This document shows positions 22,917 to 61,516 of a stretch of DNA of 64,000 nt, piece after piece. The stretch is from a phage: sequence record PZ026127.1; one strand, given 5' to 3'. The position numbers were made by a program, and so were the translations under genes. Each line of letters opens with the position of its first letter. Within the stretch, counting starts at the first letter, position 1. The notes under the pieces were generated by a model. That model worked only from the letters and a program-made list of their open reading frames with translations. It searched no databases and had not been told where the DNA came from.

Positions 22917-23582
22917 ATGTTCCATTACACTTATAAAATAACAAACAAAATTAATAATAAAATCTATATAGGTGCCCATTCAACCGAAAATTTGAATGAT
23001 GCATATTTTGGTTCCGGTAAACTCTTGAAAAGGGCCCAGGCCAAATACGGTATAGAAAATTTCTCTAAAGAAATATTAGAGTTCTTTGACGATAAAATCT
23101 CTATGTTTGAGTCAGAAAAGAATATTGTGACTGAAGAGTTTTTAAAGCGCCCCGATGTTTATAATTTGAAATTAGGCGGTGAAGGTGGTTGGGACCATTT
23201 AAACACCGAAGAATATTTAGATAAAAAGAAAGAAGCTTCCTTAAAAGGAGTTGCCGCTTTTAAAACCAGATTTGAGAACGACCCAGACCTTAAAGAAAAA
23301 TATCGTAAAATGGGTTCAGAAAGGTTTAAACAACTTTGGGATAATCCTAAGTATAGAGAGAAATTTTCAAATACTAAATCTTTCTTGGGTAAGACCCATT
23401 CAGATGAAACCAAAAATAAAATGAAAGAATCTCACGCCAGAAATAAACACCAACAAGGTGAAAATAATTCCGGATATGGAAAAATGTGGATTCATTCTTT
23501 AGAAGAAAAAGTTTCTAAACGTATTAACAAAACGGATATTATTCCTGAAGGTTGGAATAAAGGCCGTAAAATAAAATTTTGA
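22917..23582 (+). CDS. segB: GIY-YIG homing endonuclease (Seg-like) in tRNA cluster
   Basis: 221 aa; N-term YTYKITNKINNKIYIGAHS (GIY-x10-YIG variant), C-terminal NUMOD-like GKTHSDETKNKMKESH; lies between two tRNA genes like T4 segB. Confidence 0.75.
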   Translation: MFHYTYKITNKINNKIYIGAHSTENLNDAYFGSGKLLKRAQAKYGIENFSKEILEFFDDKISMFESEKNIVTEEFLKRPDVYNLKLGGEGGWDHLNTEEYLDKKKEASLKGVAAFKTRFENDPDLKEKYRKMGSERFKQLWDNPKYREKFSNTKSFLGKTHSDETKNKMKESHARNKHQQGENNSGYGKMWIHSLEEKVSKRINKTDIIPEGWNKGRKIKF

Positions 23583-56666: not shown

Positions 56667-56926
56667 CTTTAGATGAATTCAAAAAATCGGGACTTGAACT
56701 AGAACACGACTGCATCGTTATTGATGACGACGGACAAACGAGTATTATTAAGTTCTGGTTTGAAGCCGTGAGCACTCGCGACACCAACGAGCTTATTAAA
56801 GTTTATGTTGCTACTGATTGGGCTGTGGAATTTAGCTTTAATGTAATGGTAGATGATACTCCAGAAACATTAATTCATATGGCTGAATCATGCATCAAGG
56901 ATGCTTATAACGATGAAGACTTTTAA
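56663..56926 (+). CDS. hypothetical protein (46.1-like position)
   Basis: 87 aa ORF between 47 and 46, ATGA overlap. Confidence 0.5.
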   Translation: MTLDEFKKSGLELEHDCIVIDDDGQTSIIKFWFEAVSTRDTNELIKVYVATDWAVEFSFNVMVDDTPETLIHMAESCIKDAYNDEDF

Positions 56927-58595
56927 GTTAAAGAAAGTAACGTATAAAAATATTATGTCGGTAGGGCAGCAGCCCATTACAATTCAACTTGACAAGGTCC
57001 AAAAGACCTTAGTCACCGGTAAAAATGGTGCAGGGAAATCTACTTTCCTTGAAGCCGTTACATTTGCTCTGTTCGGTAAGCCTTTTCGTGATGTTAAGAA
57101 AGGGCAGTTGATTAACTCAAGTAATAAGAAAGACCTTTTGGTCGAACTGTGGATGGAATATGATGGCAAAGAATACTATATCAAGCGCGGGCAAAAACCC
57201 AATATTTTTGAAATCTCTTGTGGCGGTGAACGTCTTGATGAATCTGCCAGCAGTAAAGACTTCCAAGCAGAATTTGAACAGCTTATCGGAATGTCATATA
57301 CCAGTTTCAAACAGATTGTCGTACTTGGTACAGCAGGGTATACCCCTTTCATGGGTTTGTCGACCCCTGCGCGCCGAAAGCTTGTGGAAGACCTCTTAGA
57401 GGTTTCTGTATTAGCGGATATGGACAAGTTGAACAAATCTTTGATTCGTGAGACTAATAGCCAAATCCAAGTAATCGACGTTAAACAGGATTCTATTATC
57501 CAGCAAATTAAAATTTATAATGACAACGAAGAACGTCAGCGTAAATTATCAGGTGAGAACGCAGCACGTCTACAAACAATGTACGATGAGCTCGTTAAAG
57601 AAGCCAGGACTGCGAAGGGCAATATAGAAAAACTGACTGATGAATTACTCAATGTCATCGTCGATGATGACCCTAGCAACTCTATGAGTGACCTGAGCAA
57701 TAAAGGATTTGCAATCAAGAATGATATGGCAACCTTTACTAAGGTCGTGAAATTATACGAAACCGGTGGTAGTTGTCCTACATGTATGCAAGGACTGGAA
57801 GAGCATGGGAACATCCTTACTAAAATTAAGGACAAGAACTTTGAACTTCAAAAATCTTTGGATAAGATTAATGAGCAGTACCAAGAACTCAAGCTCATTA
57901 AGGACCAAGTAACCGAACAACGTAATAAAGCGCTGGCTATTAAATCTCAGATAGCTACTCATAAGCAACAAGCCATTACTGCCGTAGAGAAAGCTAAAAA
58001 AGTTAAAGTATTAATCGACCAAGCAGCTGCTGAGTTCGTAAGTAATGCCGAAGAGATTGCCACGCTTCAAGCAGAGCTTGATAAAATCGTCTCTACCAAA
58101 TCGTCCTTGGTAATGGAAAAATACCATCGTGGAATTCTGACAGAAATGTTGAAGGATACTGGTATTAAAGGTTCCATTATTAAGAAATACATTCCTATCT
58201 TTAATAAGCAGATAAATTCTTATTTGAAGATTATGGAAGCGGACTACGTCTTTACACTAGACGAAGAGTTCAATGAGACGATTAAATCACGTGGACGTGA
58301 AGACTTTAGTTATGCTTCATTTTCACAGGGTGAGAAAGCACGTATTGATATCGCACTACTTTTTACATGGCGCGATATTGCTTCTAAGGTATCAGGTGTT
58401 AATATCAGCACGTTAATTCTTGATGAGGTATTTGACAGTGCTACTGACGCTGAAGGCGTTAAGACCATTGCAACCATCTTGAATAGCCTTGAGGATACGA
58501 ACGTGTTCATTATCTCTCACCGAGACCATGACCCACAAGCTTATGGCCAACATCTTCAAATGAAGAAAGTTGGACGATTCACGGTGATGGAATGA
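56913..58595 (+). CDS. 46: recombination endonuclease subunit gp46 (Rad50/SbcC-like)
   Basis: 560 aa from ATG 56913 (T4 gp46 560 aa); Walker A GKNGAGKST, long coiled coil, signature SGGE and Walker B LILDE. Confidence 0.9.
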   Translation: MKTFKLKKVTYKNIMSVGQQPITIQLDKVQKTLVTGKNGAGKSTFLEAVTFALFGKPFRDVKKGQLINSSNKKDLLVELWMEYDGKEYYIKRGQKPNIFEISCGGERLDESASSKDFQAEFEQLIGMSYTSFKQIVVLGTAGYTPFMGLSTPARRKLVEDLLEVSVLADMDKLNKSLIRETNSQIQVIDVKQDSIIQQIKIYNDNEERQRKLSGENAARLQTMYDELVKEARTAKGNIEKLTDELLNVIVDDDPSNSMSDLSNKGFAIKNDMATFTKVVKLYETGGSCPTCMQGLEEHGNILTKIKDKNFELQKSLDKINEQYQELKLIKDQVTEQRNKALAIKSQIATHKQQAITAVEKAKKVKVLIDQAAAEFVSNAEEIATLQAELDKIVSTKSSLVMEKYHRGILTEMLKDTGIKGSIIKKYIPIFNKQINSYLKIMEADYVFTLDEEFNETIKSRGREDFSYASFSQGEKARIDIALLFTWRDIASKVSGVNISTLILDEVFDSATDAEGVKTIATILNSLEDTNVFIISHRDHDPQAYGQHLQMKKVGRFTVME

Positions 58596-58783
58596 GTGAT
58601 TTTATAACAGGCCAGCATTTGTTGGCCGTTCCTGAACTAAAGCGGTATGTTTTAGTTAATAACTTCTCTGGAGACGAACATCTTGTTACTGAAGATTATC
58701 TCCGAAATGCTTTTAAGTCAGAGTATGATAGAATCATGTCGAACAGGAATCCTGCCTGGTTCGTTTATGAATACTTTGATTAA
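58592..58783 (+). CDS. hypothetical protein
   Basis: 63 aa ORF, ATGA overlap with gp46 stop. Confidence 0.5.
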   Translation: MSDFITGQHLLAVPELKRYVLVNNFSGDEHLVTEDYLRNAFKSEYDRIMSNRNPAWFVYEYFD

Positions 58784-59281: not shown

Positions 59282-59980
59282 ATGAAATTCTCTAAAGAAA
59301 CTCTGAACATTCTGAAAAACTTCTCCAGTATTAACCCAGGTATCATGCTTAAGCCTGGTAACACTATTCTAACTCGTTCAGTAACGGGTGCAAGTTATGG
59401 TGAAGCTACTGTAAGCGATACCTTTGATATCGAAGCCGCAATCTACGACCTGAACGGCTTCTTAAGTATTCTGTCATTGGTATCCGATAGTGCTGAAGTT
59501 TCAGTAAGTGAAGACCAAACCACTTTAATTATTAAAGACCAACGTTCAACTATTAAGTGGCCTATTGCTGACCCAAGTACAATTGCATTCCCAAGCAAAG
59601 CTATTCCATTCCCGGTGGCTGAAGTTATTTTTGACCTTAAAGCCGAAGATTACCAACAGTTGATGCGTGTGTCCTCTGGATTGAGTATTGATACATTTGC
59701 TATCACTGTAGACAACGGTAAAATTGTAATCAATGGCTACAAACAAGTTGATGATAAGGACCTGGCACGTCCATTGTATTCCTTAGTGGTTGCAGACCAT
59801 GATGGTCCTGAATTCAAATTCATTATCAACAAAACCAATATGAAAATGATGCCTGCTGATTACCATGTATTGCTATGGGCTCGTGGTGAAGGTCAGGATG
59901 CTCGTTTCGCAGCCAAGTTTGAAGGTTCACAAGCTTCTTATGTATTGGCTATGGAAGCAGGCTCAAGCCACTCGTTCTAA
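59282..59980 (+). CDS. 45: sliding clamp gp45
   Basis: 232 aa; MKFSK.T...LKNF..IN.GIMLK.G......V.G..Y.EA..SD..D...AIYDLNGFL.ILSLV.D.AE.S.SED... matches T4 gp45. Confidence 0.9.
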   Translation: MKFSKETLNILKNFSSINPGIMLKPGNTILTRSVTGASYGEATVSDTFDIEAAIYDLNGFLSILSLVSDSAEVSVSEDQTTLIIKDQRSTIKWPIADPSTIAFPSKAIPFPVAEVIFDLKAEDYQQLMRVSSGLSIDTFAITVDNGKIVINGYKQVDDKDLARPLYSLVVADHDGPEFKFIINKTNMKMMPADYHVLLWARGEGQDARFAAKFEGSQASYVLAMEAGSSHSF

Positions 59981-60546
59981 TGTACATTTGCTATCATAAT
60001 ACAATAACAAATACCAAAACTAAGGATGTCTACCATTATTTCGGTAGACACCGTGTTACTCCTGAAGAATATTATGGTACTGGTAAATTTGTTAAGAAAT
60101 GCAAACGAGAAAATGCTATAACTCCTGGTGTTTGGGAGTTTAGTATTGAGATTGTCCACAAAACGGATACATTTAAAGAAGCCAAACTTATTGAAGAGGC
60201 CCTTGTTAAAGAAGGTATTGCCAAGTATGGTTCACTTTGTGTTAATAAAGCTCCCGGCGGTCCGGGTGGCGTAGATTTCCACAGTGCTGAATCTAAACGT
60301 AAGATGTCTATCACCCGAACCGGAAAATCAAGAACATTTTCCGAAAGCCATAAGCTTAATTGCTCTAAATGGCAACGCTCTGAAATATGGCAGAATTATG
60401 AAGAGCTCCATAAGATTTGGATAGAACTTGGTATGCCTAAAAAGGGTAGATTTAGTACGCTTTTACAAAATTATGGATATAATTATTCTGCAAACGAATT
60501 GAATAAAATTGTTAAACATTTTAATGAGGAAAATAATAATGAGTAA
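59980..60546 (+). CDS. GIY-YIG-like homing endonuclease (Seg-like, divergent)
   Basis: 188 aa; N-term YICYHNTITNTKTKDVYHYFGRH (GIY...YIG variant, Arg after YIG), NUMOD-like SAESKRKMSITRTGKSRTFSESHK; inserted between 45 and 44. Confidence 0.55.
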   Translation: MYICYHNTITNTKTKDVYHYFGRHRVTPEEYYGTGKFVKKCKRENAITPGVWEFSIEIVHKTDTFKEAKLIEEALVKEGIAKYGSLCVNKAPGGPGGVDFHSAESKRKMSITRTGKSRTFSESHKLNCSKWQRSEIWQNYEELHKIWIELGMPKKGRFSTLLQNYGYNYSANELNKIVKHFNEENNNE

Positions 60547-61516
60547 AGTGGTAAATGGTTTAACTATTAATGAAAATGACTTCATGTGGGAACAGAAATA
60601 TCGTCCAGGTACTTTATCTGAGTGTATTCTGCCGGCGCATGATAAAGAAACCCTCCAAGCCATTGTTAATAAGGGTCTAATCCCTAACATTATCCTAGTC
60701 TCTGCTTCACCAGGCACAGGTAAAACTACCGTAGCTAAAGCATTGTGTGCTGATACAAATTCAGATATGCTGTTTGTTAACGGTTCTGACTGCCGTATTG
60801 ATTTCGTTCGTAATGAACTTACTCGTTTTGCATCTTCCAAATCTATCGAAGGTAAACGTAAGGTAATTGTTATCGACGAATTCGACCGCGCCGGTGTTGC
60901 TGAAGCTCAACGTCACCTTCGTTCGTTCTTAGAAGCCTATTCCTCAAACTGTTCTGTAATTATTACAGCAAACAATATTGATGGTATTATCGGCCCACTT
61001 CAATCCCGTTGTCGTGTTATTAAATTTGGTGAAGCCACTCCGGCCGACCAAACATCCATGATGAAAGAAATGATTCATCGTGCTGTAGCAATCTGTAAAA
61101 ACGAAAATATCGAAGTCGAAGACCTTAAAGTTATTGCTGCCTTAGTTAAACAAAACTTTCCTGACTTCCGTAAAACAGTTAACCAACTGGACCGTTACTC
61201 ATCCAGTGGTAAAATCGATACAGGCATTTTGAGTATTGTAATGAATACCAATTCGCCTATCGATGAAGTAGTGGCTGCACTTAAAGATAAAAACTTTAAA
61301 GAACTCCGTGCATTAGCTCCACGTCATGTCAACGATTATTCCAACTTTATTATGTCGCTGGCTAACGAACTCTATGGTAAATTGCCTGGACCAAGCATTG
61401 TTAGAATGTACGAAATTGTCGGTGAAAATAACCAATACCACGGTATTGCGGCTAACCCAGAAATTCACATGACTTATCTGTTCATCCAACTTGCTCTGGA
61501 GCTCCAATGGCTATAA
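60539..61516 (+). CDS. 44: clamp loader large subunit gp44
   Basis: 325 aa from ATG 60539; ...EQKYRP......LPA.DKET......KG.IP.I.L.S.SPGTGKTTVAKALC.D.N.DM.FVNGSDC.IDFVR... matches T4 gp44. Confidence 0.9.
   Translation: MSKVVNGLTINENDFMWEQKYRPGTLSECILPAHDKETLQAIVNKGLIPNIILVSASPGTGKTTVAKALCADTNSDMLFVNGSDCRIDFVRNELTRFASSKSIEGKRKVIVIDEFDRAGVAEAQRHLRSFLEAYSSNCSVIITANNIDGIIGPLQSRCRVIKFGEATPADQTSMMKEMIHRAVAICKNENIEVEDLKVIAALVKQNFPDFRKTVNQLDRYSSSGKIDTGILSIVMNTNSPIDEVVAALKDKNFKELRALAPRHVNDYSNFIMSLANELYGKLPGPSIVRMYEIVGENNQYHGIAANPEIHMTYLFIQLALELQWL

Follow-up and report, generated by a model that had tools for sequence, protein, structure and literature searches.

Whether a small open reading frame lying between the sliding clamp and clamp-loader genes of a T4-type phage is a mobile homing endonuclease gene, the decaying remnant of one or a domesticated component of the replication operon is the question raised by this locus. 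The window, meaning here the whole stretch of 64,000 nucleotides that was analysed (PZ026127.1), comes from a JS98-like T4-type phage of the genus Dhakavirus. Its 45-44 region is 98.5% identical to that of Escherichia phage LQ5 and 92-99% identical to those of about 50 other Dhakavirus records. Our preferred reading, to which we assign a probability of about 0.72, is that the frame encodes a predicted functional, free-standing Seg-type GIY-YIG homing endonuclease, which a Dhakavirus carries between genes 45 and 44 as a mobile cassette.

Position, family and domain layout of the gene

The predicted free-standing Seg-like GIY-YIG homing endonuclease gene occupies positions 59980-60546 (+) and codes for a protein of 188 amino acids. 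The left homology arm is gene 45, coding for the sliding clamp (59282-59980, +), as delimited from the list of open reading frames and from the gp45 annotation in MX01, JS98 and Bp7. The right homology arm is gene 44, coding for the large subunit of the clamp loader (60539-61516, +), as delimited from the same list and from annotations. The ATG of the endonuclease gene (59980-59982) and the TAA stop of gene 45 (59978-59980) have one base in common, forming a TAATG stop/start overlap (59978-59982, +). At the other end, the endonuclease stop codon TAA (60544-60546) is situated 5 nt beyond the gene 44 ATG (60539), an overlap of 8 nt. The Shine-Dalgarno sequence GAGG (60526-60529) and the ATG (60539-60541) of gene 44 are contained within the last codons of the endonuclease gene (60526-60541, +), and this ribosome binding site doubles as the final codons AAT GAG GAA AAT AAT AAT GAG (N-E-E-N-N-N-E). 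The TGAGGAAA..ATG element also precedes gene 44 in every relative free of the ORF.

An initial annotation had described a 188-amino acid reading frame at this position with a TAATG start and a gene 44 overlap, which is exactly what the list of open reading frames and the sequence contain, and both of the motifs that it quoted, YICYH and VYHYFGRH, are found in the protein. It had also stated that T4 carries no gene between 45 and 44, and a 50-nt spacer alone is indeed present there. Its proposal of a homing-endonuclease insertion in the 45-44-62 replication operon is supported, T4 and other relatives being free of the ORF.

The attribution to a family came from profiles of relatives. Neither of the Pfam GIY-YIG models (PF01541 and PF19835, SegE_GIY-YIG) matched the window protein even at E<=10, a search of NCBIfam with the window protein returned no match, and the family profile gave no meaningful match to PDB sequences. 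PHROG 314, "homing endonuclease", matched residues 1-185 (E 6.5e-16). A profile built from the five closest homologs retrieved 498 relatives at E<=0.001 among 1.84 billion representative proteins, and a 70-member family alignment was made of the window protein and 69 of them. Among the 70 aligned members, PF19835 was found in 23, PF01541 in 14 and NUMOD3 in 40. In the ten nearest distant relatives the Pfam scan revealed NUMOD3 and did not reach the GIY-YIG models; these proteins therefore constitute a divergent subclade, and the transitive argument rests on more distant members and on hhalign. The six annotated GIY-YIG enzymes of the T4 record (SegA, SegD, SegE, SegF, SegG and I-TevI) served as an independent reference set, to which hhalign aligned the close-family profile with a probability of 97.5% (E 5.7e-12, 113 columns, residues 8-139). 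The GIY-YIG likeness noticed initially is thus borne out by profile-profile comparison and not by direct Pfam search.

Structure prediction is in agreement with this attribution. An AlphaFold model made from 5 sequences was too weak (pLDDT 60), and the 70-sequence input was used instead, with which the DNA-binding domain reached pLDDT 90-96. The predicted structure contains a beta-beta-alpha-beta-alpha fold resembling solved GIY-YIG domains. BFVD yielded 101 matches at E<=0.001; among the matches listed, those with names are nearly all Seg/GIY-YIG endonucleases, the neighbour names being those of Seg, GIY-YIG or NUMOD3 proteins. Foldseek against PDB gave a weak match, 1ln0 at E 0.37. As judged from sequence profiles and a model, the 188-codon gene is a putative Seg-type GIY-YIG endonuclease, divergent in sequence.

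Three parts can be distinguished in the protein. Residues 1-95 (59980-60264, +) are predicted to form the GIY-YIG catalytic domain, with beta-beta-alpha-beta-alpha topology. They are followed by a NUMOD3-like linker at residues about 100-133 (SAESKRKMSITRTGKSRTFSESHKLNCS; 60277-60378, +), placed by a sub-threshold Pfam NUMOD3 match and by alignment to the NUMOD region of T4 Seg proteins. Residues about 135-187 (60382-60540, +) form a predicted C-terminal three-helix DNA-binding domain with an HTH-like fold in the predicted structure. The NUMOD-like segment of the initial annotation is recovered as a match to NUMOD3 at residues 100-116, which stays below the threshold (E 0.068, 13.5 bits against a cut-off of 20.4).

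The Seg signature is present in the catalytic domain as YYGTGK, then N89 and, three residues later, GGPGG (93-97). Key residues are Y5 (59992-59994), Y20-F-G22 (60037-60045), Y31-x-G-T-G35, E72 (60193-60195), N89 (60244-60246) and G93-G94. Ten of the 11 columns that are invariant or nearly invariant in the Seg-like family (70-sequence alignment) are kept, namely Y5, Y20, G22, Y31, G33, G35, E72, N89, G93 and G94, the eleventh, S34, being Thr. The close family shows no variation at R23, H24, R25 and K39. As to the catalytic residues whose conservation was in question, Glu (E72) and Asn (N89) fall, like Y5, Y20 and G22, on invariant or nearly invariant columns, and the Arg could not be placed from the alignment: Arg27 of I-TevI is without a clear positional equivalent, its segment being gapped in the canonical T4 SegA, SegD, SegE and SegG. 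The N-terminus, which had been called degenerate, is better described as the ICY/YFG variant of a divergent Seg subclade.

The window protein resembles T4 SegA-SegG in its GIY-YIG domain with a YxGSG-type motif, its Asn followed by GGxGG, its NUMOD3 linker and its C-terminal DNA-binding module, and the sizes are similar (188 amino acids against about 205-224). As with the T4 seg genes, the gene is intergenic between conserved essential genes, is patchy among close relatives and is linked to recoded flanking sequence, comparable to the co-conversion associated with SegF and SegG. In contrast to these enzymes, to which it is only about 20-25% identical, the protein falls below the Pfam and NCBIfam thresholds and has the motifs ICY/YFG and GTG for GSG; the gene occupies the 45/44 site, which is empty in T4, has no promoter or Shine-Dalgarno sequence of its own and overlaps its neighbours at both ends. 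I-TevI, the T4 td intron endonuclease and structural reference for GIY-YIG domains (PDB 1LN0), is 16% identical to the window protein; it is intron-encoded whereas the window gene is free-standing, and the window linker is without zinc finger. The C-terminal DNA-binding half of T4 MobD is 33.6% identical to residues 76-188 (E 2e-5), but the catalytic domains are unrelated, that of MobD being HNH. DNA-binding tails are shuffled as modules between nuclease families, and the MobD match fits this pattern.

The C-terminal domain is also where the two Dhakavirus alleles differ most, the last ~30 codons excepted. The last ~90 nt of the ORF (60456-60546) are 93-97% identical to Bp7 and 85% to VR20, the identity of the remaining ORF being lower (45-80% to Bp7, 55-70% to VR20). 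Conservation of synonymous sites in this 3' end is in modest excess only, and no claim is made for an overlapping element there beyond the gene 44 ribosome binding site. Conservation of the 3' end beyond the embedded site could reflect a recombination boundary, a recognition helix, or control of gene 44 or by RegA.

Distribution and anatomy of the junction

Comparison of the 45-44 junction in related phages revealed that the ORF is sporadic and not common to all of them. It is present in 9 of ~51 Dhakavirus records (6 phages) and, within Gaprivervirus, in VR20 only, one of ~30 phages. The amino acid identity to the window ORF is 97-98% in the carriers LQ5, SHP1 and MX01 and 78% in Bp7 and PSD2002. 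The ORF is truncated in vB_EcoM_005 and absent from T4, JS98, JS10, IME08, QL01, WG01, ABTNLS3 and most other Dhakaviruses; JS98 and JS10 are listed without homing endonuclease genes (Petrov et al. 2010, PMC2993671). On the flank (backbone) tree, carriers are interleaved with ORF-free phages. Wherever it occurs, the ORF sits at the 45/44 junction, and two metagenomic T4-like contigs are no exception. One of these, a 169-kb contig from a human gut metagenome, carries between genes 45 and 44 a distant homolog that is 55% identical, and a second one, of 154 amino acids, is located between the same genes of a Logan contig. Homologs occupy the same junction in two T4-like lineages besides the two genera.

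All empty sites (T4, JS98, ABTNLS3, QL01, VR7 and SP18) have one layout: after the stop codon of gene 45 come a stable hairpin, then ~25 nt of conserved spacer and the TGAGGAAA...ATG of gene 44. The conserved spacer reads GGAGTAyAAwGTA-AAAC in Dhakavirus and Gaprivervirus. At the VR20 junction, which otherwise equals the SP18-type empty site, the ORF has taken the place of only 18 nt, with the hairpin/GGAG on one side and the Shine-Dalgarno sequence of gene 44 on the other; the native GGAG serves as Shine-Dalgarno sequence for the ORF. This replacement localises the ancestral insertion point. The Dhakavirus carriers, including the window, are more compact: hairpin and spacer are gone, and the ORF begins with an ATG fused to the stop codon of gene 45.

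Junction alignments with ABTNLS3, the nearest ORF-free phage, delimited the whole swapped cassette at 59981-60580 (+). It takes the place of the 60-nt spacer of ABTNLS3 (hairpin and ribosome binding site; 61 nt in JS98 and QL01) and also of the 8 initial gene 44 codons. Its boundaries are clean, there being zero differences to ABTNLS3 over 366 nt on the left (59615-59980) and 191 nt on the right (60581-60771). An extended co-conversion gradient was not found in the flanks in comparison with ABTNLS3, the differences being few and unclustered near the junction.

The right end of the cassette consists of the first 14 codons of gene 44 in a "long" form (MSKVVNGLTINEND; 60539-60580, +), seen in ORF-carrying Dhakaviruses; in the ORF-free JS98, ABTNLS3 and QL01, gp44 starts with MLTVNNNE. 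Within Dhakavirus the long form is linked to the ORF. A strict linkage was considered and rejected, SP18 being ORF-free with the long form and the ORF-carrying metagenomic locus L013 having a near-short MKLTVNEADF; the long N-terminus is therefore a co-transferred flank and not a requirement.

Two forms of gene 44 were observed among the ORF-free Gapriverviruses, the SP18-type long form MTTVINGLTVNESDF and the VR7-type short form MLTVNDKE. The SP18-type ribosome binding site ATGAGGAAAATAATAATG is that of the endonuclease-carrying phages (SP18: L009, 1197-1300; VR7: L010). This split may go back to an ancestral polymorphism, or mark an immune allele or a precise loss.

The ORF also has a history that conflicts with that of its flanking genes. 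Gene 45 of the window differs at 5 of 699 nt from that of the ORF-free ABTNLS3, at 15 from that of Bp7 and at 55 of 699 from that of MX01; the identity of the window ORF is 98-100% to MX01 and 45-92% to Bp7. Relative to Bp7, dS is 0.84 in the ORF and 0.03-0.09 in the flanks. By these comparisons, the ORF behaves as a mobile cassette which comes and goes among close relatives.

Altered copies were seen in two sequences. In vB_EcoM_005 (L003, 2199-3635), a 111-bp in-frame deletion takes out the last 37 codons of the ORF with the ribosome binding site and start of gene 44, and joins the first ~156 endonuclease codons to gene 44; RefSeq and UniProt list the fusion as a 478-aa "clamp loader". A gp44 of normal length could still be started from an internal ATG (MLLNGLTINEND...), and the fusion is possibly a genuine decaying copy, possibly an artefact of assembly. 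In the Logan contig SRR28261677_793533 (L014, 2861-3465), the homolog between genes 45 and 44 has kept the upstream hairpin (GAGGAGCTTTGCTCCTC). Its 5' end is apparently frameshifted, with MYNCYHNK.. in one frame and ..ITNTHTNEIFHYFGRH in another, which is why the called protein starts at an internal Met and has 154 amino acids; the copy is a pseudogene, or else the assembly is wrong here. Empty sites and decayed copies fit the usual homing-endonuclease cycle of invasion, decay and loss.

Expression and proposed homing

Neither a TATAAATA late promoter near the endonuclease start nor any notable RNA structure or hairpin at either overlap was found (z = 0.23 for the TAATG overlap). Since the window sequence has no Shine-Dalgarno sequence upstream of the endonuclease ATG, we infer translation by termination-reinitiation. 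The endonuclease would then be made at a low level by reinitiation at the TAATG from the 45-44-62 polycistronic mRNA. T4 homing endonuclease genes are typically under tight down-regulation, and low-level translation is consistent with this.

During a mixed infection, the enzyme would cut the DNA of an ORF-free relative in or near the 45-44 spacer or at the gene 44 start. The T4-type recombination machinery would mend the break from the ORF-carrying genome, and by this repair the ORF would be brought in, the first gene 44 codons next to it being co-converted. We propose that loss of the spacer (hairpin and about 25 nt), together with recoding at the 5' end of gene 44, makes the carrier immune, and that simple deletion of the element is constrained because the last codons of the ORF supply the gene 44 ribosome binding site. 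Cleavage activity, target site and drive are putative for the window protein and for its family; the scheme is that of the intronless homing and marker exclusion described for SegF and SegG in work cited in PMC2993671.

An unlikely elaboration of this scheme is that the element may be structurally locked into the core replication operon, homing drive actively altering the N-terminus of an essential clamp loader and the way in which its expression is organised. The element may borrow gene 45 translation via the TAATG, and the deleted conserved hairpin, the encoded gene 44 ribosome binding site and a gp44 N-terminus longer by 6 residues may be read in the same way. If this were true, the in-frame Seg-gp44 fusion of vB_EcoM_005 and the SP18-type long gp44 without ORF would be footprints of the process, and the SP18-type long-form phages possibly immune alleles or precise losses.

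State of the gene, alternatives and wider context

Between alleles with dS of 0.07 to about 2, from four phage lineages, dN/dS of the ORF is 0.10-0.22. Because of these values and of the 498 relatives found by the profile, the ORF is more than a chance reading frame; it is under purifying selection, and the window copy is intact and not decaying. The initial suggestion that the gene is domesticated or decaying is not supported for this copy, given the low dN/dS, the ten of 11 family columns kept and the patchy distribution. A fixed domesticated gene would be expected to show the reverse of this patchy presence amid ORF-free phages on the backbone tree.

An inactive remnant or decaying homing endonuclease gene, kept only for the gene 44 ribosome binding site in its 3' end and the difficulty of a clean deletion, would be in agreement with the failure of curated GIY-YIG models to detect the protein, with the variants ICY for GIY and YFG for YIG, with the overlap of essential genes at both ends and with the decayed copies known in vB_EcoM_005 and L014. 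However, dN/dS stays low over the full length of the ORF, also where dS reaches about 0.8-2, the family-invariant residues are retained, Glu and Asn included, and the DNA-binding domain is modelled with high pLDDT. The very recent presence/absence polymorphism on near-identical backbones moreover points to ongoing spread or exchange, and we regard a remnant as quite improbable.

A domesticated DNA- or RNA-binding regulator, or a nuclease serving the phage in the tuning of 45/44, the exclusion of competitors or help to replication and not purely selfish, is just as doubtful. The tight fit into the replication operon, where the ORF overlaps both neighbours, the purifying selection, the same location in four lineages and the replacement of a conserved intergenic hairpin by the ORF are in its favour. 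Yet T4 and most close relatives grow without the ORF, whereas a beneficial gene should be fixed within the genus, and site-specific homing equally predicts a conserved location. Nothing sets the window protein apart from ordinary Seg enzymes, and marker exclusion is a normal outcome of homing, not a separate function.

Finally, patchiness generated by ordinary homologous recombination and deletion in co-infecting phages, the ORF being a passenger with or without an active nuclease, is compatible with cassette ends that meet highly conserved flanks able to support general recombination, with two divergent alleles in near-identical backbones and with the absent co-conversion gradient relative to ABTNLS3, but it is very unlikely, as the same gene family is found at exactly the 45/44 junction in at least four diverged lineages and purifying selection is unexpected on a functionless passenger.

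Under the preferred reading of a Seg-type homing endonuclease gene, this is an ordinary mobile gene of a well-known kind, uncharacterised and at a previously undescribed site, and it is no surprise to a T4 specialist; the concept of homing endonucleases is left unchanged by it. A literature search for a description of a 45/44 endonuclease gene found none. Members of the family are annotated as "hypothetical protein" in every GenBank/RefSeq record examined, the MX01 copy being named "Homing endonuclease" in UniProt. Naming the family corrects these records as well as the "clamp loader" merger of vB_EcoM_005, and the 45/44 junction joins the sites held by selfish endonucleases in T4-like phages. 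The series of states encountered at this junction (empty, clean insertion, compacted, truncated, frameshifted) offers possible material for mapping a Seg target site and for asking how elements of this sort become established in an essential, translationally coupled operon. The case also indicates that curated domain models miss divergent Seg subclades.

Other endonuclease genes were observed in the window and its relatives. MX01 (L001, 45-761) and Bp7 (L004, 44-760) carry on the minus strand an annotated 717-bp homing endonuclease gene between gene 46 and 45.2/rpbA; this gene is missing from the window, in which gene 46 (56901-58595) overlaps gene 45.2 (58592-58783) directly. The window has a second Seg-like GIY-YIG gene, of canonical type, at 22917-23582 (+), encoding 221 amino acids (YKITNKINNKIYIGAHS...YFGSGK...YNLKLGGEGG). 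Its product shares 34.5% identity with T4 SegE (residues 1-195, E 6e-28), and its N-terminal domain is about 50% identical to those of SegA and SegD.
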